Numbered from the stretch's first letter, positions 5,946 through 27,097 are shown. The stretch is DNA of 64,000 nt from Halarcobacter sp. (GCA_963676565.1 OY781089.1:608001-672000); one strand, 5' to 3'. Numbers and translations: made by a program. The notes: generated from the sequence alone by a model not told the origin.

Positions 5946-6746
5946 ATGGAAAAAGTTATAGCAAAAAAGAAATTTGGTCAAAATTTCTTAAAAGATCATA
6001 CCGTACTTAACAAGATCATCCAATCGATGCCCAATAACAATAATCATATTGTAGAAATAGGGCCTGGCTTAGGTGATTTGACAAAAAATTTAGTCAAGTA
6101 CAAAGACACGACTGCTTATGAAGTCGATACTGATTTAATCAGTATATTAAATTCTAAGTTTGCAAAAGAGATAGAAGAAAAGCGTTTTGAATTGATCCAC
6201 ACTGATGTTTTAGATGCTTGGGAGAAAAAAGGTAGTTTACATAATGGCAAATATGACTTAATTGCTAATTTACCTTACTATATTGCAACAAATATTATAT
6301 TAAGAGCATTTGAAGATGTTAACTGTGAAAATATAATTGTAATGATACAAAAAGAGGTGGCTGAAAAATTCTCTGCAAATGAGGGTGATAAAGAGTTCTC
6401 TTCCTTAAGTGTTATTACAAAAATGGTTTCAAAAGAGTGTAGGCTACTATTTGATGTACCTCCAGAATCTTTTGATCCGCCACCAAAAGTTACCTCTTCA
6501 ATTCTATATGTATCAAAAGATACTAGTGTAGAATTAGATAAAGACTTTATGAAGTTTTTGAAGGTTTGTTTTACACAACCTAGAAAGAAATTATCAAAAA
6601 ACCTTTTGTCGGTTATTGATAAAGAGTTTTTATCTAATATCTACAATGAACTTAATATAAAAGAGACTTTAAGACCTCATGAAGTAAGTGCGTCTTTGTA
6701 TAGCCAAATGTATACAAAGGTAAAGAATGGAAAACAACGAGGCTAA
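5946..6746 (+). CDS. rsmA: 16S rRNA dimethyladenosine transferase
   Basis: KKFGQNFL, EIGPGLG, ANLPYYI, PPPKVTS. Confidence 0.97.
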   Translation: MEKVIAKKKFGQNFLKDHTVLNKIIQSMPNNNNHIVEIGPGLGDLTKNLVKYKDTTAYEVDTDLISILNSKFAKEIEEKRFELIHTDVLDAWEKKGSLHNGKYDLIANLPYYIATNIILRAFEDVNCENIIVMIQKEVAEKFSANEGDKEFSSLSVITKMVSKECRLLFDVPPESFDPPPKVTSSILYVSKDTSVELDKDFMKFLKVCFTQPRKKLSKNLLSVIDKEFLSNIYNELNIKETLRPHEVSASLYSQMYTKVKNGKQRG

Positions 6747-8748
6747 AAATCAAGAAGATATAGCTAAAAAATCTGTTTCTTCAAACGAAGAAAAACCAAA
6801 ACAACAAAACAACAGAAGAAGACCTAGAAGTAATCAAGGAAATAAGCAAAACAGACAAGCTAATCCTAATACTACAAGTAATAATTCTTCTGAAGCAAAT
6901 AGTGAAAATCAAAATAAAACTACAAATTCTCAACAAAAAAGAAGAAGACCTAGTAATGGTAGTAGAGCAAAAACTCATCAGTCAAAAACAAACAGTACAT
7001 GGATTAATGACTTAAAAAAAGCTCATATCATCAATGAAAAATCTCATAAAGATAGATTAAATCCACACAATAAATTAAACCTTTCTACTAATGCAAAAGT
7101 TAGAATTACTCCATTGGGAGGATTAGGTGAAATTGGTGGAAATATGATGGTAATTGAAACTGAAAATTCTGCAATTATTGTTGATGTTGGTATGAGTTTC
7201 CCTGATGAAGATATGCATGGTGTCGATATTTTAATCCCAGATTTTACATATATTAGACAAATCAAAGATAAAATTGAAGCTGTTGTAATTACACATGGAC
7301 ATGAGGACCACATTGGTGCAATGCCTTATTTATATAAAGAATTACAGTTTCCAATTTATGGTACTTCACTACCATTAGAGATGATTGGTTCAAAATTTGA
7401 TGAACATAAAATAAAAGATCATAGAAAATTCTTTAGACCAGTAGAAAAAAGAGTTCCAATTAAAATTGGTGATTTTGAGATTGAATGGATTCATATTACT
7501 CACTCAATTATTGATGCTTCTTCATTAGCAATCAAAACAGAAGCGGGAACAATTATCCATACAGGTGACTTTAAAATTGACCATACTCCAATTGATGGTT
7601 TTCCAACAGATTTACATAGATTTGCTCATTATGGAGAGGAGGGTGTTTTATTATTAATGTCTGATTCAACTAACTCTCACTCACCAGGTTTTACTAAATC
7701 TGAAAAAACAGTTGGCCCTACTTTTGATAGATTATTTTCTACAGCTAAGGGTAGAGTTATTATGTCAACTTTCTCATCAAACATCCATAGAGTTGCACAG
7801 GCAATTGATCATGCTATGAAATATGGTAGAAAAGTTTGTGTTATTGGAAGATCAATGGAAAAAAACTTAGATTTAGCAATGAGTTTAGGTTATATTAAAT
7901 TTCCAAAAGATCAATTTATTGATGCTCACGAAGTTAATAAATATAAAGATAATGAAGTTTTAATTGTAACTACAGGTTCTCAAGGTGAATCTATGAGTGC
8001 TCTTTATAGAATGTCAATTCATGAACATAGACATATTAAAATTAAGCCAGGTGATCAAATTATCCTTTCTGCAAAAGCAATTCCTGGAAATGAAGCAAGT
8101 GTATCTCAAATAATCAACCACTTACTTAAAGCTGGTGCGCAAGTTGCTTATCAAGATTTTAGTGAAATTCACGTTTCTGGACATGCTGCACAAGAAGAGC
8201 AAAAATTAATGTTAAGATTAGTAAAACCTAAATTCTTTATGCCAATACATGGTGAATACAATCATGCAGTAAAACATGCAAAAACTGGTGTAGATTGCGG
8301 TGTTCTTGAAAGAAATACATATATTATGAGTGATGGTGAACAAGTTGAAGTTAGCCCAAAATATCTTAAAAAAGTTAAGTCAGTAAAAACAGGAAAAGTT
8401 TATATTGACAATCAATTAAACAACAAAATCTCAAATGATATTGTTATGGATAGACAAACTATGGCGAACGAAGGTGTTGTTATGATTGTTGCTCAAATTA
8501 ATGAAAATGATAGAAAAATGGAACAAAGACCAAGGGTTTCATCTTTTGGTTTAGTACCAGATAAGTTGGATAAACAATTTTCAAAAGAGATTGAAGATTT
8601 ATTATTAACTTTCTTAGAAAATGTAAAAGAGGGTATCTTCAAAAACAATAAAATTGTTGAAGATGAAATTAGAAAAGTTGTTAGAAAACATTGTGTTAGA
8701 AAATACAAAAAATACCCAGTGATAGTTCCAACGATTTTTGTTATATAA
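6727..8748 (+). CDS. rnj: Ribonuclease J with ~120-aa low-complexity N-terminal extension
   Basis: PLGGLGEIGGNM, THGHEDHIG, HTGDFK, HVSGHA. Confidence 0.97.
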   Translation: MENNEAKNQEDIAKKSVSSNEEKPKQQNNRRRPRSNQGNKQNRQANPNTTSNNSSEANSENQNKTTNSQQKRRRPSNGSRAKTHQSKTNSTWINDLKKAHIINEKSHKDRLNPHNKLNLSTNAKVRITPLGGLGEIGGNMMVIETENSAIIVDVGMSFPDEDMHGVDILIPDFTYIRQIKDKIEAVVITHGHEDHIGAMPYLYKELQFPIYGTSLPLEMIGSKFDEHKIKDHRKFFRPVEKRVPIKIGDFEIEWIHITHSIIDASSLAIKTEAGTIIHTGDFKIDHTPIDGFPTDLHRFAHYGEEGVLLLMSDSTNSHSPGFTKSEKTVGPTFDRLFSTAKGRVIMSTFSSNIHRVAQAIDHAMKYGRKVCVIGRSMEKNLDLAMSLGYIKFPKDQFIDAHEVNKYKDNEVLIVTTGSQGESMSALYRMSIHEHRHIKIKPGDQIILSAKAIPGNEASVSQIINHLLKAGAQVAYQDFSEIHVSGHAAQEEQKLMLRLVKPKFFMPIHGEYNHAVKHAKTGVDCGVLERNTYIMSDGEQVEVSPKYLKKVKSVKTGKVYIDNQLNNKISNDIVMDRQTMANEGVVMIVAQINENDRKMEQRPRVSSFGLVPDKLDKQFSKEIEDLLLTFLENVKEGIFKNNKIVEDEIRKVVRKHCVRKYKKYPVIVPTIFVI

Positions 8749-8756
8749 GGTAGAAA

Positions 8757-9722
8757 ATGGATTTTAATAAAATTGCCCAAGAGGTATTAGATACTGAAGC
8801 AAATGAATTAATAAATGCTTCGAAAAATATTTCAGATTTTGATCTAGAAAAAGCTATAGAATTAATTGTTAATTGCAAAGGAAAACTTATAGTTACTGGT
8901 GTTGGAAAATCAGGACTTGTAGGTGCAAAGATTGCTGCAACATTAGCAAGCACAGGTACATCATCGTTTTTCCTACATCCAACGGAAGCTATGCATGGTG
9001 ATTTAGGTATGATTGGTAAAGAAGATATTGTTTTAGGTATTTCATATAGTGGGGAAAGTGAAGAATTGATTCAATTACTTCCTCACCTTAAAAGATTTGA
9101 TATACCATTAATTGCAATGGCAAAAAGTAAAAAATCTACCTTAGGTAAATACTCAGATTTCTTTTTTGATATCTCAGTTTCAAAAGAAGCTTGTCCTTTA
9201 GATACTGCACCAACTTCTTCAACTACATTAACTATGGCAATGGGTGATGTTCTTGCTGTTTGCTTGATGAAAAAAAGAAATTTCCAAAAAGAGGATTTTG
9301 CATCATTTCATCCAGGTGGAAGTTTAGGGAAAAAACTATTTATTAAAGTATCTGACCTATTAAGAACTAAAGATTTACCAATTGTTTCACGTGAAACAAA
9401 ACTAAAAGATGCAATTGTAACTATGAGTGAAGGTAGACTTGGAAATGTATTAATTACAGATGAAGAGGGTAAACTAAGCTCTGTATTAAGTGATGGAGAT
9501 TTAAGAAGAGCCTTAATGAACGATGACTTTTCAATGGACTGTGAGATTGAAGAGATTGCAACAAAAAATCCTAAAATTATTGATGACCAAAATATTTTGG
9601 CAAGTGATGCACTTAAGATTGTTGAAGATTTTAAAATTCAATTATTGATTGTTACTGATAAAGATAAAAAAATAGTTGGTGTTTTACACATTCATGACCT
9701 GATTGAAGCAGGTATAAAATAA
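8757..9722 (+). CDS. kdsD: Arabinose-5-phosphate isomerase (KpsF/GutQ; SIS plus CBS domains)
   Basis: GVGKSG, HPTEAMHGDLG, APTSST, HPGGSLG. Confidence 0.9.
   Translation: MDFNKIAQEVLDTEANELINASKNISDFDLEKAIELIVNCKGKLIVTGVGKSGLVGAKIAATLASTGTSSFFLHPTEAMHGDLGMIGKEDIVLGISYSGESEELIQLLPHLKRFDIPLIAMAKSKKSTLGKYSDFFFDISVSKEACPLDTAPTSSTTLTMAMGDVLAVCLMKKRNFQKEDFASFHPGGSLGKKLFIKVSDLLRTKDLPIVSRETKLKDAIVTMSEGRLGNVLITDEEGKLSSVLSDGDLRRALMNDDFSMDCEIEEIATKNPKIIDDQNILASDALKIVEDFKIQLLIVTDKDKKIVGVLHIHDLIEAGIK
9383..9398. promoter_or_regulatory. parS site (perfect consensus) inside kdsD
   Basis: TGTTTCACGTGAAACA, 16/16. Confidence 0.9.
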
Positions 9723-20545: not shown

Positions 20546-20620
20546 TGGTGGTCGTAACTGGATTTGAACCAGTGACCACCACCATGTCAAGGTGGCACTC
20601 TACCACTGAGTTATACGACC
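20546..20620 (-). tRNA. trnV: tRNA-Val(GAC), integrase-proximal copy (att repeat)
   Basis: Cloverleaf GGTCGTA...CCACC-TTGACAT-GGTGG...TTCAAATC...TACGACC-ACCA with encoded CCA. Confidence 0.95.
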
Positions 20621-20654
20621 AGTTCGACGTTTGGTAGACTGTAAGTACTAAAGG

Positions 20655-20676
20655 TACACACAAACGATACACAAAA
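20655..20676 (+). repeat. 22-bp direct repeat, left copy; putative integrase arm-type site
   Basis: TACACACAAACGATACACAAAA, identical at 26849-26870. Confidence 0.8.
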
Positions 20677-20708
20677 GGGCTTCAAGAATAAACACTTGGA
20701 GTTATTTT

Positions 20709-21923
20709 ATGAGCACGACCCTATCATATTTGAAGTCATCAACTAATGGCTTTTTTAAGTATAGAAGAAGAACCCCTAAACTACTTGAAGAGATTATAGG
20801 TTCAAGAGAAGTAATTAAAGCCCTAGGAACAAATGAAACTCAAGCTATTACTAAAGCAATAAAACTTAATAACCTCATCAATGAAGCTGTTGAGTTAAGT
20901 AAGATACAGTCTATACCTAAAGAGACTATTATAGAGTTACTAAAGAGTGAACTAAAGTTAACCACAAAGAAAACAAAAGAACAGAAAAAGAAACTATCAT
21001 ATTTCATTAAGTTATATCTTGAGCAATCTAATGTGACAGATAAAGAGTATAGATATAGAGAGTATTTCTTTAATGAATACTTACCATTACTTATAGAGGT
21101 TTTATTCAAGAAAAGAGATTTAGATATAGAAGAACTTACTTACGACAAGCTCTTAAAGATAAGAACATTATTTATGAAGCTACCTAGTAGGAACTTTTAT
21201 AAGTATAGAGTTGTAAATCAACTAGAGTTAGTCTCAAAGGTCAATAAAGGGACTCTAAAGATAGCTAAAGAACATTTACTATCAGAAGATACAATAAACA
21301 AGAACCTAAAGAGGATAAAGTCACTACTATTTTTTGCAAAAGAACTTAATTGCTATAGTCATAACATACCTAAAACACTTGTAATCAATCGTAAAGGAGA
21401 TACCTCATCAAGAGGAGAGAAAGCAATACTAACAAAGGATGACCTAGAGATTGTCTTTAGTCACACTAATGATGACCTTAAGTACCTATATGAAGTATCT
21501 TATTACTCAGGGATGAGAAGGTCAGAGTTGTATAAATGTAATATAGTAGACTATGAAGGTGTCTTATGCTTTGACCTAAAGAACATTACAGAAAGACTAA
21601 AGACAAGTTCAAGTTATAGACTTATTCCTATCCATAGTAAGTTACTTTATAGAATAAATGAGTTTAAGGACATTATAGAGAATACTAAAGCTGGCTGGAT
21701 TAGTAATAGTTTTAGTAGATTAGTTAAGAGGTCATTTAAAGATACAAAAGGCAAGTCTTTATATTCACTAAGACATACATTTGCTACTAATCTTATAGCC
21801 AATAAAGTTAATCCTGAGGTTATATCTGAACTTATGGGACACTCACACTCTACAATGACTATGAGTAGATATGTTAAAGGTTACCCTATTGAAACCCTTA
21901 GAGAGGCTATAGAATGTCTATAG
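20709..21923 (+). CDS. Tyrosine recombinase/integrase with N-terminal arm-binding-like domain
   Basis: YSGMRRSE (R), LKT (K), YSLRHTFAT, LMGH, MSRY; N-terminal YRRRTP...KALGT. Confidence 0.95.
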   Translation: MSTTLSYLKSSTNGFFKYRRRTPKLLEEIIGSREVIKALGTNETQAITKAIKLNNLINEAVELSKIQSIPKETIIELLKSELKLTTKKTKEQKKKLSYFIKLYLEQSNVTDKEYRYREYFFNEYLPLLIEVLFKKRDLDIEELTYDKLLKIRTLFMKLPSRNFYKYRVVNQLELVSKVNKGTLKIAKEHLLSEDTINKNLKRIKSLLFFAKELNCYSHNIPKTLVINRKGDTSSRGEKAILTKDDLEIVFSHTNDDLKYLYEVSYYSGMRRSELYKCNIVDYEGVLCFDLKNITERLKTSSSYRLIPIHSKLLYRINEFKDIIENTKAGWISNSFSRLVKRSFKDTKGKSLYSLRHTFATNLIANKVNPEVISELMGHSHSTMTMSRYVKGYPIETLREAIECL

Positions 21924-21929
21924 TCTCTT
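21901..21929 (+). other. 13-bp RNA hairpin over the integrase stop codon
   Basis: AGAGGCTATAGA-ATG-TCTATAGTCTCT, with G.U pairs. Confidence 0.55.
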
Positions 21930-21985
21930 ATAGAGGTTAGGTTAATCAATGTCACTAAGACCAATAAAATACAAAGGATAAAACA

Positions 21986-22261
21986 ATGATGTATATTGAA
22001 TTAGAAAGTATAGGACAAATGTTAAGAGTTGTAGATGGTAGTCTATGTATTGGAAATGAGGATGGTGAAGGAGTTTATGTAGATGAGCTTAGAAGCTCTA
22101 AAGGTAGAGAAATATACAAAAAGGTTAGTGAGTTAGAAAAAGAGCTTGTAGGTGCCCTTACAGAGCTTAAAGATATTGCTATTGATAAGGTAAAAAGAAA
22201 TGAGTTAGAGGGAGTTATAGAAGGCTTAGAGGCAGACTTTAAGAGTCTAATTGATTTTTAA
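21986..22261 (+). CDS. Hypothetical phage-like protein (91 aa)
   Basis: AAAGGA SD; C-terminal amphipathic helix. Confidence 0.7.
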   Translation: MMYIELESIGQMLRVVDGSLCIGNEDGEGVYVDELRSSKGREIYKKVSELEKELVGALTELKDIAIDKVKRNELEGVIEGLEADFKSLIDF

Positions 22262-22302
22262 ATGAAAACATATATAATAATATTTATTTTTAAGGAGAAG
22301 AC

Positions 22303-22659
22303 TTGGACAAATATTTAAGTATTGTACTTCCAATATTATCTGCATTAGTTATTTATTATACCTTCACTAAAAATAATGAAAATGAGGATAATAAAATATT
22401 AATCACAGAGTTTAATGGGCAAAAAGTTATTTTAGCTAACTGGAGTAAAGATAAATATATAAGAAGTGGCTATTATAAAGGACATTGTTATGTTTTTCCT
22501 ATTGAACATAAAGTGACATATCAATATGTAAATACAGAATATAAAGATTTACTAGCAAAAGAAAATATGATTGGACTAAAAGAAAGTAGTAGAGATTGTT
22601 TTTCTAGAGTTAGATTATTATATGATAAACCTAACGAACTAAAACCTATGAAGTTTTAA
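22303..22659 (+). CDS. Hypothetical N-terminally membrane-anchored protein (118 aa)
   Basis: AAGGAG SD with TTG start; one hydrophobic segment; more AT-rich than its neighbours. Confidence 0.65.
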   Translation: MDKYLSIVLPILSALVIYYTFTKNNENEDNKILITEFNGQKVILANWSKDKYIRSGYYKGHCYVFPIEHKVTYQYVNTEYKDLLAKENMIGLKESSRDCFSRVRLLYDKPNELKPMKF

Positions 22660-22701
22660 CTTCTAAGATAACTGTTCAGTTCAAAGCTTATCTACTTACT
22701 T

Positions 22702-22743
22702 AAAGAAAAGAGGTCTGTAAGTCCACTTTACAGCTCTTCTTTT
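22702..22743 (+). terminator. Hairpin with T tract upstream of the tandem promoter-like motifs
   Basis: AAAAGAG..CTGTAA-GTCCACT-TTACAG-CTCTTCTTTT. Confidence 0.5.
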
Positions 22744-22810
22744 AATTTACCCTAATACTTTTATTACCTAACAACTAAAAAGCCTTGTAGCCTCCTCACA
22801 GAATATTTAT

Positions 22811-22904
22811 TAAAGATAACGACCTATAGGAGAGGACTTAATTTAGCAATCTCAGCAAATCCCTTAATTAAGGCTTTTTCTTAAGAGTGCCACCTATAGG
22901 AGGA
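22811..22904 (+). promoter_or_regulatory. Tandem T7-like phage RNA polymerase promoter-like motifs
   Basis: ACCTATAGGAG at 22822 and 22892 (70 bp apart), each preceded by a TTAA AT-rich block. Confidence 0.5.
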
Positions 22905-22974
22905 AAACCAAGAATGGACACTCTAGGAATAAACTATCTAAAAACTAAAATCAAAATCATAAAAGGAGGTTCAG

Positions 22975-23454
22975 ATGAACAACAATCAAACACAACTAAA
23001 AGAAGTTGTAATGTTTACTGATGGCTCTTGTTTAGATAATGGTAGAAATGGAACTGGAGGATACTGTGCATTACTACAGACACCAAACAAGAAACATCAA
23101 AAGATAATTAAAGGTAGTGAGTTAGATACTACGAACAATCGTATGGAGATAACAGCTATCATAGAAGGGCTTAAGGCAATTAAAAAGCCTTCTAAAGTTA
23201 CAGTTTATAGTGACTCAAACATCACTGTAAGAGCTATTAATGAATGGCTTGAAAGATGGATAAGGAAGAACTTTAGGAAGGTTGCTAATGTTGACCTTTG
23301 GAAAGAGTATTTAGAGGTATCAGCTAAACATCAAGTTAAGGCTATATGGGTTAAAGCTCATAGTGGTATTTATGAGAATGAACTTGTAGATGATATAGCT
23401 AGAAGTGAGGCTATGAAGTTGCATGGCAAGAGAGGTATTCATTATGGGTACTAA
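22975..23454 (+). CDS. Ribonuclease HI (element-borne)
   Basis: FTDGSC, TTNNRME, YSDS, NVDLW, WVKAHSG, NELVD; AGGAGG SD. Confidence 0.95.
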   Translation: MNNNQTQLKEVVMFTDGSCLDNGRNGTGGYCALLQTPNKKHQKIIKGSELDTTNNRMEITAIIEGLKAIKKPSKVTVYSDSNITVRAINEWLERWIRKNFRKVANVDLWKEYLEVSAKHQVKAIWVKAHSGIYENELVDDIARSEAMKLHGKRGIHYGY

Positions 23455-24694
23455 GATTACTATAATTGATGGAGTATGTGGCTCAGGAAAGAGTCAAGGT
23501 ATTATAAAACAAATGAAAGAACAAAGCTATAAGAAGTGGATTTGTTTTACTCAGTTCATTAGTGAATGTCATAGATACGCTGGAACTCAACCTATATCTA
23601 AGAAGAATGATGAACCAAAGAGAAGGAAAGATGGAACTTTAATCTATGATGAACCATCAGAGTTTAACTGTTCAGAGCTAGAGTTCAAACATCCACTGAG
23701 AAAAGGTAGAGGTCAGAAGAAAGAGGACTTAATAGAACTCCTTAAACAAAGAGAAAACATAGTTACAACCCATCAAATGCTTACAAACATAGGTTCAGAT
23801 GTACAAGAGTTAATCTCTGAGTTGTCTTATGTAGCTGTACTTGATGAAGTTGTAGACCCTATACAAGAGTATAAGATTACATCAAACAACAAAAAGGAAC
23901 TCTTTGAGCATGAGTATGTCTATCTATCTGATGATGGAGTGACCTTATGTTGGAACTATGAGAAATACCCTGATAGAAAGAAGGGAGATAACTTCTACAA
24001 AGAGAAACAGTTGATTGATAGTGGAAACTTAATCCTTTTAGATGGTAGTATTTATCTGTGGGAAATGTCAGAGAGTCTCTTCAACTCATTTACAGAGGTT
24101 TACATACTTACATATCAGTTTGAAGGTTCTCCATTGATGTGGTTCTTTAAAGCTAAAGGGATAAAGTATGAAGTACACTATAAACCTAAAGCTAATGTAA
24201 AGTATGGAGACCTAATCAATATCATTGAAGATGAAAGACTAAACTCTATTGGAGATAGTCCCAACTTCTTATCTTCAAACCGAACTAGAAAGTTATCTCA
24301 AGGAGAAATAAGAGACCTTAAAGCTAATCTAAACCATCTAAGAAAAAGAGTATGGAATGATGGGGAAGATAGAATGTGGACTTGTTTAGGTAGTGCTAAA
24401 GATGACTTAGGTGTTAATGGGTGGAAGAAAGGATTTGTACCATTCAACATTAGGGGCTCTAATGACTATAGACAAGTTAAGAACTGTGCTTACTTGTTCA
24501 ATGTATTTCTAAACCCAAACATCACTAAGTACTTTAGTAAGTATGATGTGACAGTTGATGAAGATACTTATGCTCTTAACAGTTTACTTCAATGGTTGTT
24601 TAGGTCTAGGCTAAGAGATGGTAAGTCAGTTAGTGTCTATATCCCCTCAAAGAGGATGAGGGAACTACTTAAAGAGTGGTGTAGACATAACTAA
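23444..24694 (+). CDS. Compact SF2-like P-loop helicase/replication protein; probable start 23444
   Basis: Walker A DGVCGSGKS, VTTH, Walker B VLDEV, ILTY, motif VI-like QWLFRSRLR; overlaps the RNase H stop. Confidence 0.7.
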   Translation: MGTKITIIDGVCGSGKSQGIIKQMKEQSYKKWICFTQFISECHRYAGTQPISKKNDEPKRRKDGTLIYDEPSEFNCSELEFKHPLRKGRGQKKEDLIELLKQRENIVTTHQMLTNIGSDVQELISELSYVAVLDEVVDPIQEYKITSNNKKELFEHEYVYLSDDGVTLCWNYEKYPDRKKGDNFYKEKQLIDSGNLILLDGSIYLWEMSESLFNSFTEVYILTYQFEGSPLMWFFKAKGIKYEVHYKPKANVKYGDLINIIEDERLNSIGDSPNFLSSNRTRKLSQGEIRDLKANLNHLRKRVWNDGEDRMWTCLGSAKDDLGVNGWKKGFVPFNIRGSNDYRQVKNCAYLFNVFLNPNITKYFSKYDVTVDEDTYALNSLLQWLFRSRLRDGKSVSVYIPSKRMRELLKEWCRHN

Positions 24695-24701
24695 AACTAC
24701 T

Positions 24702-25000
24702 AATGGACACAAAGTGTGAAGCTAAAAGTGTCCAATATGAAAGTTAAACCCCTATTGATGGTATCTACAGAGGTTTATCTGTAAAGAACAACAATCTTAA
24801 ATACTTTAAGTAGAGACTAACGGATAACTTTACTTGATGGTTAATCTAGATGACCTATAAATTAATTAATATAGAAATGAGTTTAGGTTAAAGGTATAGT
24901 AGTCCTAAATGTAGCGCTATAACTAGACCTTAATCTCATTTCTAAACAATCATAAGCTTAGAGTCAATACTTAAGAGATGACTATAGATTGACTTTAAGT
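24702..25000 (+). other. Structured non-coding region (inverted repeat and two long hairpins); candidate origin or RNA element
   Basis: TGGACAC/GTGTCCA 24704-24734; stems 24872-24944 and 24956-25000. Confidence 0.45.
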
Positions 25001-25059
25001 AACTACTTCACTACGTGTGTCTTTTATACTATCTATTCTATTTCTTAATATTAATTCAT

Positions 25060-25899
25060 TTAATCCTCTAAAGTCTTTTTTTGTCTATATTTAGAAATTA
25101 ATATAGTTGCGACTATTGAACTTCCAACTCCTAAAATAAAACTTAATGCATTTTGTAATAGTATGTCATACCAAGATTGTGATTTAATAGCCTCTTTAAA
25201 AGACTCAATTTGTTGTTCAGTAAGCTTTTCTAATTCTTTTGCCTTATTATATTCTTGTTCAATTATTTTCTTTGCTTTTTGTGTTTTCTGCATATCTTCT
25301 TTAATATCATTTAGTTGAACCTCTAAGTCTTTTAGATTTCCTATTGCAAGTTCTACATTTTGTATTTTTTTCTCTAAAGTTGGTTTTTGGATTTTTAAAG
25401 TAAAAGAAAATAATAAAAGTAAAACTGAAATAATTGATACAAAAGAAGAAATAGTTAATATTCTATTTTGTGTTAAAGAACGTTTTTTTGCTACTTTAAT
25501 CTGTTTAATATTTATTTTATCATTTTTAGTTAAAGTAATAAGTTCTTCTACATCTACTATCTTTATTTTTGCAATTGATAAAGCATTCTTTTCAACTTCC
25601 TTTTTTAATAAATCATCAGCTCTTTTTGTTAATTTTCCTGATGTTATCAATATAAAAACTTTAATTTTAGGAGTAAGTGAAAGTAACTTAAAAAAGATTT
25701 TAATATAATCAATATCAATACTCTTATGATGTTTAATTTCTATAGCAACTGTTCCATTATTTGCAATTAAGTCAAAACTGCCATCTAAGTTATACTCATA
25801 ATTATAAACATCAGGAGCAATATTTTTAATATTACTTAAACAAAAATCTTCAAACTCTTCTCCAGTTAATGCATATAAATCTTCTTTTGTGTATTTCAT
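25060..25899 (-). CDS. Mrr-like PD-(D/E)xK endonuclease domain + TM + coiled coil + TM (putative defence cargo)
   Basis: GEEFEDF, DGSFD, IEIK, ILITSGKLT, IKIVDVEEL; two hydrophobic segments flanking a heptad-rich region; own TATAAT and GGAG SD. Confidence 0.7.
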   Translation of the reverse strand: MKYTKEDLYALTGEEFEDFCLSNIKNIAPDVYNYEYNLDGSFDLIANNGTVAIEIKHHKSIDIDYIKIFFKLLSLTPKIKVFILITSGKLTKRADDLLKKEVEKNALSIAKIKIVDVEELITLTKNDKINIKQIKVAKKRSLTQNRILTISSFVSIISVLLLLFSFTLKIQKPTLEKKIQNVELAIGNLKDLEVQLNDIKEDMQKTQKAKKIIEQEYNKAKELEKLTEQQIESFKEAIKSQSWYDILLQNALSFILGVGSSIVATILISKYRQKKTLED

Positions 25900-26112
25900 T
25901 TATTCTCCAATTATAACTATAAGTATTATAACTTTTAGACTCTTAATAATTTATACTTTATTTTAAGATTATTGTAGCGAAGAGGCTCCTATAAGTGACA
26001 CCATAGAGACACTTATGACACAGTTGAAGATGACTGGAACTGTTCAAGAAACTCATGTGTGAGTGATTACAGTAGCTCTTATAGTAGTACAAGTGATTTC
26101 TAGGAGGTGACT

Positions 26113-26346
26113 ATGAAAATATTAGAGATTGTAGATAAAAAGATAGCTGAACTTGAAGCAGAAGTTAAATACTTTGAGGAGTCATTTGAAGGATGGCATG
26201 AAGAGATTGAGAAGGAAGGTTACCCTATTGCTGGAGATTTCTTTGGTCATTCTGATGACTGCTTTGATATGGGTATAGAGTATGGTGAAGGTCTAAAAGC
26301 TAGAGAGACTTTAACGTTTTTGAAGAAACTTAGAGGAGGTGAATAA
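26113..26346 (+). CDS. Hypothetical acidic phage-like protein; probable ATG start at 26113
   Basis: AGGAGG SD; TAATG coupling to the next gene. Confidence 0.65.
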   Translation: MKILEIVDKKIAELEAEVKYFEESFEGWHEEIEKEGYPIAGDFFGHSDDCFDMGIEYGEGLKARETLTFLKKLRGGE

Positions 26347-26813
26347 TGGAGTTAATTAAAGTAGATATTAGTGAAGAAGTTGTAGTAGAGGTTCAGCCAC
26401 ACGAAGAGCATGAATGGTTGTTGTCAAGTAAAGATGTGGCTGAGGGTTATGGTTTGAGTGCTAGTGGTTTGAGAATGACTAAAAAGAGATACTCAGATGA
26501 ACTAGAAGAAGGTGTACATTTTATCAATGTCACAAATAGTGATATTGGTGGCAGACCCTCAGTTTATTGGACTAAAGAAGGTGTAGTAATGTTAGGGTTC
26601 TTCATTAAGACACCTACAGCTAAAGAGTTTAGAAGATGGGCTTCAAACTTTATTGTTGAGAAGAGTAAAGAACCAAAAGCTCCAGCTGTACCTCAGACAT
26701 ACCTAGAGGCACTTCAAGCTCACTTAGAGTCAGTACAACAACTTGAAGAGGCTAATAAGGTAATTGCTTTACAAAAAATAGTAAAAATATCTGAAAGGAC
26801 ATATACGTATTAG
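26346..26813 (+). CDS. Phage antirepressor-like DNA-binding protein (ORF6N/BRO-N-like), apparently lacking its C-terminal domain
   Basis: DVAEGYG, ELEEGVHF, WTKEGVVMLGFFIKTPTAKEFRRWA, linker PQTYLEAL. Confidence 0.7.
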   Translation: MELIKVDISEEVVVEVQPHEEHEWLLSSKDVAEGYGLSASGLRMTKKRYSDELEEGVHFINVTNSDIGGRPSVYWTKEGVVMLGFFIKTPTAKEFRRWASNFIVEKSKEPKAPAVPQTYLEALQAHLESVQQLEEANKVIALQKIVKISERTYTY

Positions 26814-26848
26814 AGCAGATTAATTTTCCCCCGTAGGGTATCAAAAGA

Positions 26849-26900
26849 TACACACAAACGATACACAAAAATGCAAAAGGTACACAAAAAAGTGTGTATC
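26849..26900. repeat. Right-hand cluster of putative integrase arm-type sites
   Basis: 22-bp repeat copy, an extra GGTACACAAAA (26879) and an inverted GTGTGTATC (26892). Confidence 0.75.
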
Positions 26901-26993
26901 ATTCAGCTATAATTAAGTTTTTGTTAAGATTGTAAATGTTAAAGTTTTGGACTTGAAAGTCCTATTTGAAGGTATCTAGGAGTCAATCTTAAG

Positions 26994-27068
26994 TGGTGGT
27001 CGTAACTGGATTTGAACCAGTGACCACCACCATGTCAAGGTGGCACTCTACCACTGAGTTATACGACC
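26994..27068 (-). tRNA. trnV: tRNA-Val(GAC), copy retaining the host upstream region
   Basis: Identical to 20546-20620; -10-like GATAAT upstream at 27082-27087 (minus strand). Confidence 0.95.
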
Positions 27069-27097
27069 AAAAGAGTGAAATATTATCTTATTAGAAC

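Follow-up and report, generated by a model that had tools for sequence, protein, structure and literature searches.

A stretch of 64,000 nucleotides (nt) from Halarcobacter sp. (GCA_963676565.1, OY781089.1:608001-672000; the whole of it is called the window here) holds short tandem sequences at positions 22811–22904, in the non-coding DNA ahead of an operon for an RNase HI and a helicase, and they raise the question of how this operon is switched on. In the original prediction they were described as two promoter motifs of T7/SP6 type, situated 70 bp apart downstream of a terminator-like hairpin, through which the operon might act as an infection sensor. The motif proved to be real, is kept in related islands and points towards the operon, and it occurs in one copy more than first described; the interpretation given to it is supported in part. 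The analysis suggests that an infecting phage may switch the genes of the operon on, and the reading favoured here, to which we give a probability of roughly 45%, is that the units are arrayed promoters for the single-subunit RNA polymerases of phages, carried by a mini-satellite resembling the PICMIs and VEIMEs (virion-encapsidated integrative mobile elements).

Both strings of the original prediction are present where it placed them, TAAAGATAACGACCTATA followed by GGAGAG at 22811–22834 and TAAGAGTGCCACCTATA followed by GGAGGA at 22882–22904, and the 11-mer they share, ACCTATAGGAG, is found in exact form starting at 22822 and 22892, which gives the claimed spacing of 70 bp. The hairpin was likewise found 5' of the motifs, at ~22706–22743, with CUUUUAAUUU after it. 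A third copy, absent from the original prediction, is located at 22910–22929 (full string AAGAATGGACACTCTAGGAA), its predicted +1 lying 48 nt 5' of the RNase H ATG, and the unit was redefined as 20 nt consisting of AAGAK, seven variable bases and TNTAGGAR. The copies start at 22813, 22883 and 22910, with spacings of 70 and 27 bp:

22813–22832, + strand: motif copy 1, AAGAT-AACGACC-TATAGGAG, predicted +1 at G22829
22883–22902, + strand: motif copy 2, AAGAG-TGCCACC-TATAGGAG, predicted +1 at G22899
22910–22929, + strand: motif copy 3, AAGAA-TGGACAC-TCTAGGAA, predicted +1 at G22926

The bare repetition of an 11-mer 70 bp apart is within chance expectation: the window itself has ~13 sites with exact 11-mers of at least four G/C that are repeated no more than 150 bp apart, and 64% of 300 Markov simulations contain one or more such 11-mers. 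When one mismatch is allowed ACCTATAGGAG has four matches against 0.73 expected, a number reached in two of 100 shuffles. With a matrix derived from ten island copies (hereafter the island matrix) the copies of the window score 23–35 bits and the best other site in the 64 kb 13.0. It is because of these scores, the third copy and the copies at the equivalent place in two related islands that the motif is taken as real, and the weight of the observation comes from these two Arcobacteraceae islands, with four copies in each.

The related islands were obtained from one scan of genome contigs, L001 in a metagenome-assembled genome (MAG) of Arcobacter and L002 in a MAG of Halarcobacter ebronensis, and their helicases are 85% and 94% identical to that of the window, respectively. 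In L002 the copies start at 6365, 6435, 6461 and 6488 (spacings of 70, 26 and 27 bp) and in L001 at 6630, 6738, 6760 and ~6868, the last with a 1-nt indel (spacings of 108, 22 and ~108 bp). Every copy in the three islands faces the operon and is placed between the terminator and the operon; the units are strand-specific and intergenic and stand ahead of a gene with a strong Shine-Dalgarno (SD) sequence. When the copies are aligned, AAG stands at -16 to -14 without exception, and none of the 11 departs from T at -4, TA at -2/-1 or GGA at +1 to +3. The original prediction held that the motifs differ in the specificity region, and the copies do indeed vary mainly in the corresponding stretch.

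When comparing the window with L002, differences were found at 3/39 positions of the conserved boxes, 13/102 of the other non-coding positions and 9/21 of the central seven nucleotides. Six of these nine differences come from the pair formed by copy 1 and the first L002 copy, which lies at a homology breakpoint, and without that pair the figure is 3/14, not clearly above the background of 13/102, so that a hypervariable centre was rejected. Judged by these counts the boxes are clearly constrained, and the indication that the centres evolve faster than the background is weak.

In L001 the array (6600–6860) is a tandem duplication of ~129 bp, each unit of which combines two copies of the motif with a CCCATAAAAT box and with a mini-ORF (ORF, open reading frame) of 9–11 codons encoding a hydrophobic peptide (MKLKIVIFF or MKLEIIILLKI) that is absent from the window and L002. 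L001 also lacks the RNase H gene, of which the first ~8 codons and the SD sequence are kept (6937–7000); because the gene is missing there, RNase H is dispensable for the element. In L002 two ORFs, of 298 and 94 amino acids (aa), take the place of a single helicase frame (7013–8235), as in a pseudogene or through an assembly error in the MAG.

The closest analogue of the units is the promoter of VSW-3, a Pseudomonas phage of the genus Napahaivirus, for which the available text of PMC9624206 gives an experimentally defined promoter of 18 bp, TTAATTGGGCCACCTATA, with a G at +1, and describes a polymerase that has been purified and used for in vitro transcription. The sequence at 22881–22898, which covers copy 2, is identical to this promoter at 15 of 18 bases, among them all of -10 to -1, and has G at +1 as well. 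TTAA at -18 to -15 is found in three copies, as in VSW-3, and the G at -14 and -12 is atypical for T7-like promoters.

The reverse comparison was performed by scoring ~81,000 positions of the VSW-3 genome (KX066068) with the island matrix, and its five promoters took ranks 1, 2, 3, 4 and 6. When the four VSW-3-like training copies were omitted the promoters took ranks 1–4 and 8, and a matrix of the flanks only, again without those four copies, placed four of them at ranks 1, 3, 4 and 5. In the phages Nerthus and phi-A318, where the left box is 3 nt nearer the start, only some promoters came within the top 12. In the other direction two phage-only matrices were used, one from 17 annotated T7 promoters and one from T7, VSW-3, Nerthus and phi-A318 at equal weight, and the copies took the following ranks among 127,956 positions in the window, 30,490 in L002 and 30,440 in L001:

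T7-only matrix: window 1, 36 and 124; L002 1, 4, 13 and 93; L001 6, 20, 103 and 151
Four-phage matrix: window 1, 3 and 589; L002 1, 6, 8 and 164; L001 2, 5, 373 and 2771

The resemblance to phage promoters noted in the original prediction thus holds in both directions, with phage-only matrices on the islands and with the island matrix on the VSW-3 genome; of its T7/SP6 label the T7-type grammar stands, while the nearest relative is VSW-3 rather than T7 or SP6. Nine core strings were also searched for in the promoter tables of the supplementary dataset of Zhu et al. 2025, and three of them were met in the same register within T7-like promoters, validated or predicted: GCCACCTATAG in VSW-3, GCAGTATAGG in the Pseudomonas phages Nerthus and Alpheus and ACACTCTAGG in one predicted promoter. 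One core string is found in palindromic repeats of polymerase-encoding phages.

Several observations weigh against a promoter array of this kind. Three of the nine core strings have no match in the tables and two occur only in low-scoring lists, and the scores under the phage-only matrices are modest (12–20 bits), copy 2 reaching 12.4 bits with the T7-only matrix against 11.4 for the best background site. Its rank of 1 in the window is moreover partly a matter of selection, because the site had been picked earlier for its likeness to T7. According to the parts of Zhu et al. 2025 available here, conservation in T7-like promoters is highest in region III (-7 to -3), which reads CACTA in >50% of them, and C stands at -7 in 91% of cognate pairs; among the island copies -7 to -5 varies (ACC, CAC, CAG, TCG, GAC, CTT, TCT) and C at -7 is found in 4 of the 10 ungapped copies, VSW-3 itself having A there. 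Matrices from Nerthus or phi-A318 only rank most copies poorly, because their left box is offset by 3 nt, and some copies are only 22–27 bp apart, a distance typical also of iterons and operator arrays. The copies within an island, and the three islands, are kin and not independent samples.

Nor was a partner for the array found. When the three arrays were run against 50,697 phage records, BLAST, which at that database size detects only near-exact matches of ~19 nt or longer, returned AT-rich chance matches or none. Neither this search nor the literature on Arcobacter Autographiviridae, where a search gave nothing relevant, yielded a cognate phage or polymerase, and a literature search turned up no satellite or island that relies on promoters of a phage polymerase. 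Among the proteins of the island no single-subunit RNA polymerase was detected with Pfam, PHROGs or NCBIfam. The gene content also points elsewhere than to Autographiviridae: relatives of the helicase are found in SPbeta-like and other large phages and on Acinetobacter plasmids, those of the RNase H in large phages and those of a Bro-N-type regulator in temperate phages of Nitratiruptor and Campylobacter. The neighbourhood of a helicase homologue in an Aeromonas phage was uninformative.

The motifs are situated inside an island of 6.45 kb bounded by a perfect direct repeat of 76 nt, each arm of which is a complete tRNA-Val(GAC) gene. Its features are, in order:

20546–20621, - strand: tRNA-Val(GAC), left arm of the 76-nt repeat
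20709–21923, + strand: tyrosine integrase (Pfam Phage_integrase, 3.2e-12; phrog_1, 3.4e-30)
21986–22261, + strand: orf91, a small ORF of 91 aa without family match, its DNA conserved in L001 and L002
22303–22659, + strand: orf118, encoding a small protein, hydrophobic at its N-terminus, in a variable slot
22702–22743, + strand: terminator-like hairpin with a U-rich tail
22744–22808, + strand: non-coding block with a CCCTAATAC box, conserved in the three islands at 86–93% identity
22975–23454, + strand: RNase HI, preceded by the SD sequence AAGGAGG (Pfam RNase_H, 2.7e-37)
23423–24694, + strand: superfamily 2 (SF2) helicase of 423 aa, of the SPbeta YonV family (PF27199, phrog_2467), with Walker A GSGKS and a DEVV box
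24695–25059, + strand: structured non-coding region of 365 nt (fold z = -2.6), a candidate origin or packaging region
25060–25899, - strand: orf279, variable cargo without family match
26107–26346, + strand: orf79, a small ORF whose true start is likely the ATG at 26114, after AGGAGG
26346–26813, + strand: Bro-N/Ant-like regulator (Pfam Bro-N, 3e-4, below cut-off; phrog_63, 9e-11)
26994–27069, - strand: tRNA-Val(GAC), right arm of the 76-nt repeat

The start of the helicase gene overlaps the end of the RNase HI gene. Against the NCBIfam model for ribonuclease HI the latter gave 5.8e-46 and 155.8 bits, narrowly missing the cut-off of 160 bits, and the predicted fold of the helicase (pLDDT 90.6) has XPD/DinG as its top structural matches (E 6e-8); comparing the helicase sequence with those of solved structures gave no useful match. 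The Pfam RNase_H match, the helicase motifs and the XPD/DinG-like predicted fold bear out the naming of an RNase H-helicase operon in the original prediction. Literature on YonV was searched and gave no functional information. In the comparison with L001 the block at 22744–22808 is more conserved than the coding DNA of the helicase.

What we infer for transcription by a phage polymerase and for the action of the products is as follows. The three tandem units (22813–22929) would be T7-type promoters read by a single-subunit phage RNA polymerase, and the terminator-like hairpin would shield the operon from read-through from the integrase side, and expression of the RNase HI-helicase operon would be largely off before a podophage infects the cell and brings its polymerase. 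This enzyme would then initiate at G22829, G22899 and G22926, and RNase HI and the XPD/DinG-like helicase would be made. The constant parts of the unit, AAG (-16 to -14), TNTA (-4 to -1) and GGA (+1 to +3), match what is generic in T7-type promoters, and the seven variable bases (-11 to -5) overlap the part that determines polymerase specificity, because of which an array of variants could answer several phages; the infection sensor of the original prediction would work in this manner. RNase HI and the helicase are enzymes that work on RNA-DNA hybrids or forked DNA, and two outcomes can be envisaged: an R-loop at the array could be processed to prime replication of the island, as at the T7 primary origin or in ColE1, or the enzymes could interfere with the phage by dismantling its transcription-primed replication.

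It is possible, though less probable than phage promoters, that the units are tandem binding sites of an island or host protein, for example the Bro-N-type regulator, the helicase or orf91, serving as operators, activator sites or iterons, with a coincidental likeness to T7-type promoters. Direct repeats of ~20 nt, constant at the ends, variable in the middle and in part only 22–27 bp apart, form a classic iteron or operator layout, and the differences in copy number and spacing between the islands (3, 4 and 4 copies) fit it too, as do the position of the array beside the helicase gene, the keeping of the Bro-N/Ant-like regulator in all three islands and a gene content pointing to temperate rather than T7-like phages. 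Binding sites would, however, leave unexplained why the invariant positions match T7-type grammar and spacing and why the matrices succeed in both directions. At four distant YonV-family helicase loci, moreover, no consistent upstream array was found, each having none or one weak two-copy family, and XPD/DinG-like SF2 helicases are not known to act as origin-binding initiators. In SaPIs and like satellites the origin lies downstream of the replication gene, and it is downstream of the helicase that a separate conserved structured region is located in the island.

Improbable, and more so than binding sites, are elements of a host-polymerase promoter or leader, duplicated by slippage or recombination, the units themselves being leader or without function. 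The region is AT-rich with many -10-like hexamers, for example TAAAAT near 22945, a -10 box could be represented by the conserved CCCATAAAAT that stands ~20 nt 5' of the long units of both L001 and L002, and the duplication of ~129 bp in L001 is a plain tandem one. The TAAAAT near 22945 is, however, kept in neither L001 nor L002, and the low rate of change of the boxes (3/39, against 13/102 in other non-coding DNA) argues for selection on them. No Rfam match was obtained for a leader, and folding, the hairpin aside, is no better than in shuffles (z = +0.67). Campylobacterota promoters are not known to have a clear -35 box. A simple sigma-70 scan gave no site in 22660–22975, a weak negative since the scan assumes a -35 box of E. 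coli type, and the hairpin at 22706–22743 was missed through the scan's rules on loop and tail; constitutive host promoters may be present in this AT-rich region. Hardly credible, finally, is that AGGAG is simply an SD sequence or CCTATAGG a palindromic repressor operator, two explanations that had been named as capable of overturning the original prediction. In copy 2 AGGAGG does stand 10 nt before an ATG (22914) that opens a frame of 36 codons overlapping the RNase H start, and copies 1 and 2, like the third copy of L001, contain CCTATAGG as a perfect palindrome. Yet no start codon follows copy 1, or most copies of L001 and L002, at a usable distance, the frame of 36 codons is not conserved (GTG replaces ATG in L002 and it is absent in L001), and the palindrome is found in only 3 of the 11 copies, the others having GTATAGG, TTATAGG or CTCTAGG. 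Both were rejected on the copies of the related islands, and a further objection named with the original prediction, a lack of conservation in related elements, does not hold either.

L001 and L002 are modular versions of the element of the window. Integrases and attachment sites differ, a tRNA-Arg gene adjoining the L001 island and a tRNA-like gene being found near that of L002, and the parts common to the three are the small ORF, the block with the terminator, the operon, the non-coding DNA 3' of it and the Bro-N-type regulator. The slot of orf118 is occupied in L001 and L002 by a DNA-binding protein, its gene divergent, and a resolvase, the stop codon of which overlaps the hairpin. Of this resolvase/invertase gene, complete in L001 and L002, the window retains only the last ~50 nt (22665–22715), a remnant that suggests module exchange with a breakpoint inside the 3' end of that gene.

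The non-coding DNA 3' of the helicase is about as conserved as coding DNA, both in L002 (~8262–8640) and in L001 (~8240–8775, with an insertion of ~150 nt), and the region at 24695–25059 contains several hairpins, including an inverted repeat of 28 nt at 24872–24944. From its sequence the orf279 protein would have a nuclease motif of Mrr type (D...EIK) at its N-terminus, joined to a membrane segment and a long coiled coil, and since its slot holds other genes in L001 and L002 orf279 may be anti-phage cargo. A repeat of 27 nt, identical at 26 positions, is located inside both ends of the island (20650–20676 and 26844–26870) at unequal distances from the tRNA copies, and its two copies are candidate arm-type sites of the integrase. 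The 15 closest relatives of the helicase (60–96% identity) are mostly on short contigs of 1.4–9.5 kb, with one on a contig of 88 kb, and two of the short contigs, of 6,822 and 6,291 nt, are among those near the size of the island; some of these could be excised or packaged forms.

Searches for further functions gave little. With Rfam only the two tRNAs reached gathering scores, and at E ≤ 1 the region 22600–26200 gave one chance match to a long non-coding RNA. The PADLOC defence models matched no family for RNase H and the helicase and gave only weak PDC-S05/S23 matches for the Bro-N protein. No AlpA, primase, Rep or packaging gene (terS, ppi, cpm) was found among the island proteins with Pfam, PHROGs and NCBIfam, and no divergent repressor gene of the stl/str kind was detected in the island of the window.

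The weaker look-alikes that the original prediction listed at 24841–24860 and 24971–24988 do exist, inside the structured non-coding region 3' of the helicase, and are conserved in the related islands; they represent a different motif and fall outside the top 14 of the island matrix, the first of them taking rank 9 (9.5 bits) under the four-phage matrix. The sole other exact TATAGGAG in the window is found on the - strand at 25986–25993, facing orf279 in the divergent intergenic region between orf279 and orf79 (25900–26106), and is overlapped on the + strand by GTGACACCATAGAGAC, which takes rank 30 (8.6 bits) with the T7-only matrix and is weak with the island matrix. Because of low island-matrix scores neither the two look-alikes nor this TATAGGAG were accepted as copies of the motif; of the three, 26008 on the - strand scores 9.7 bits. 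Weak hits of the four-phage matrix are enriched across 20622–26993, which makes up 10% of the window and accounts for 10 hits among the best 15 and 27 among the best 120, the maximum in 12 column-shuffled controls being 5/15 and 17/120. The island hits within the top 30 are mostly on the + strand and several are intragenic. ATCTGTT is the T7 class II pause motif; it was tried and rejected, with 18 matches against 16.7 expected and none 3' of the helicase.

Comparison with known systems places the array closest to phage promoters. Like the VSW-3 promoter the island units are contiguous, ~20–23 bp long and end in TATA/GGA, with a putative A-rich box at -18 to -14, and their variable stretch overlaps the specificity region. 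Unlike it they stand on bacterial DNA without a polymerase of its own, their -7 to -5 is not conserved and the G at -14 and -12 is unusual; they also vary at -11 to -5, whereas the promoters of a single phage are near-identical. The promoters phi1.1A and phi1.1B form the primary origin of replication of T7. They are 75 bp apart, against 70 bp between copies 1 and 2, and in both arrangements at least two promoters or promoter-like units stand in tandem at 70–75 bp, with AT-rich DNA behind them. RNase H and a helicase, both acting on RNA-DNA hybrids, are found in addition on the island, which differs in having, 3' of the helicase, a region that qualifies no less well as a candidate origin. With iteron origins it shares tandem direct repeats of ~20 nt, within the 17–22 bp used to define iterons, beside a gene for a replication helicase. 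Iterons are usually conserved over their full length and in SaPIs lie downstream of the rep gene; the island, in contrast, has no recognised initiator, its central seven nucleotides vary and the grammar is that of phage promoters.

As an element the island resembles several satellites without matching any of them. As far as the available text of PMC10803314 describes them, PICMIs are minimalist satellites of virulent marine phages, ~6.1–6.7 kb in size and packaged as concatemers, and are defined by int, alpA and prim next to fis in Vibrionaceae. The island is likewise integrative and ~6 kb, with few genes, no capsid genes and a variable slot for what may be anti-phage cargo. Unlike the PICMIs so described it has int with no alpA or primase detected, an SF2 helicase standing in that place, is inserted at tRNA-Val and not at fis, and has its relatives in Arcobacter and Halarcobacter and not in Vibrionaceae. 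A length of ~35 kb is within the range of podophage genomes. The VEIMEs, found in marine bacteria, are <5 to 16.8 kb in size and their concatemers peak near 35 and 60 kb, according to the available parts of PMC9618062, the main text of which contains no mention of 'promoter' or 'RNA polymerase'. Like these the island is a small integrative element with a recombinase (tyrosine or serine in VEIMEs), helicase or primase genes and no capsid genes; VEIMEs are defined in that text by concatemers in virions. From the PICI/SaPI group it differs in having no detected stl/str pair, pri-rep or terS/ppi/cpm.

A broader picture, which we regard as doubtful but worth stating, is that of repressor-free mini-satellites of ~6–7 kb in Arcobacteraceae that recombine promoter variants, each tuned to the polymerase of one podophage, and whose transcripts or R-loops would express the module and prime replication of the island or sabotage that of the phage. 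If phage promoters they are, the units would be a repressor-free switch that a phage could hardly escape, because a changed polymerase specificity forces a change of all its promoters. In the broader picture they would be a natural sensor of polymerase specificity, through which any of several phages could trigger the RNase H-helicase module. As phage promoters they would also link the island to T7-type phages through regulatory DNA and not through genes, a first among satellite-like elements. For very small satellites they would offer a concrete mechanism of helper-specific induction, the activation of the early regulon by the helper being left open in the available text on PICMIs (PMC10803314).

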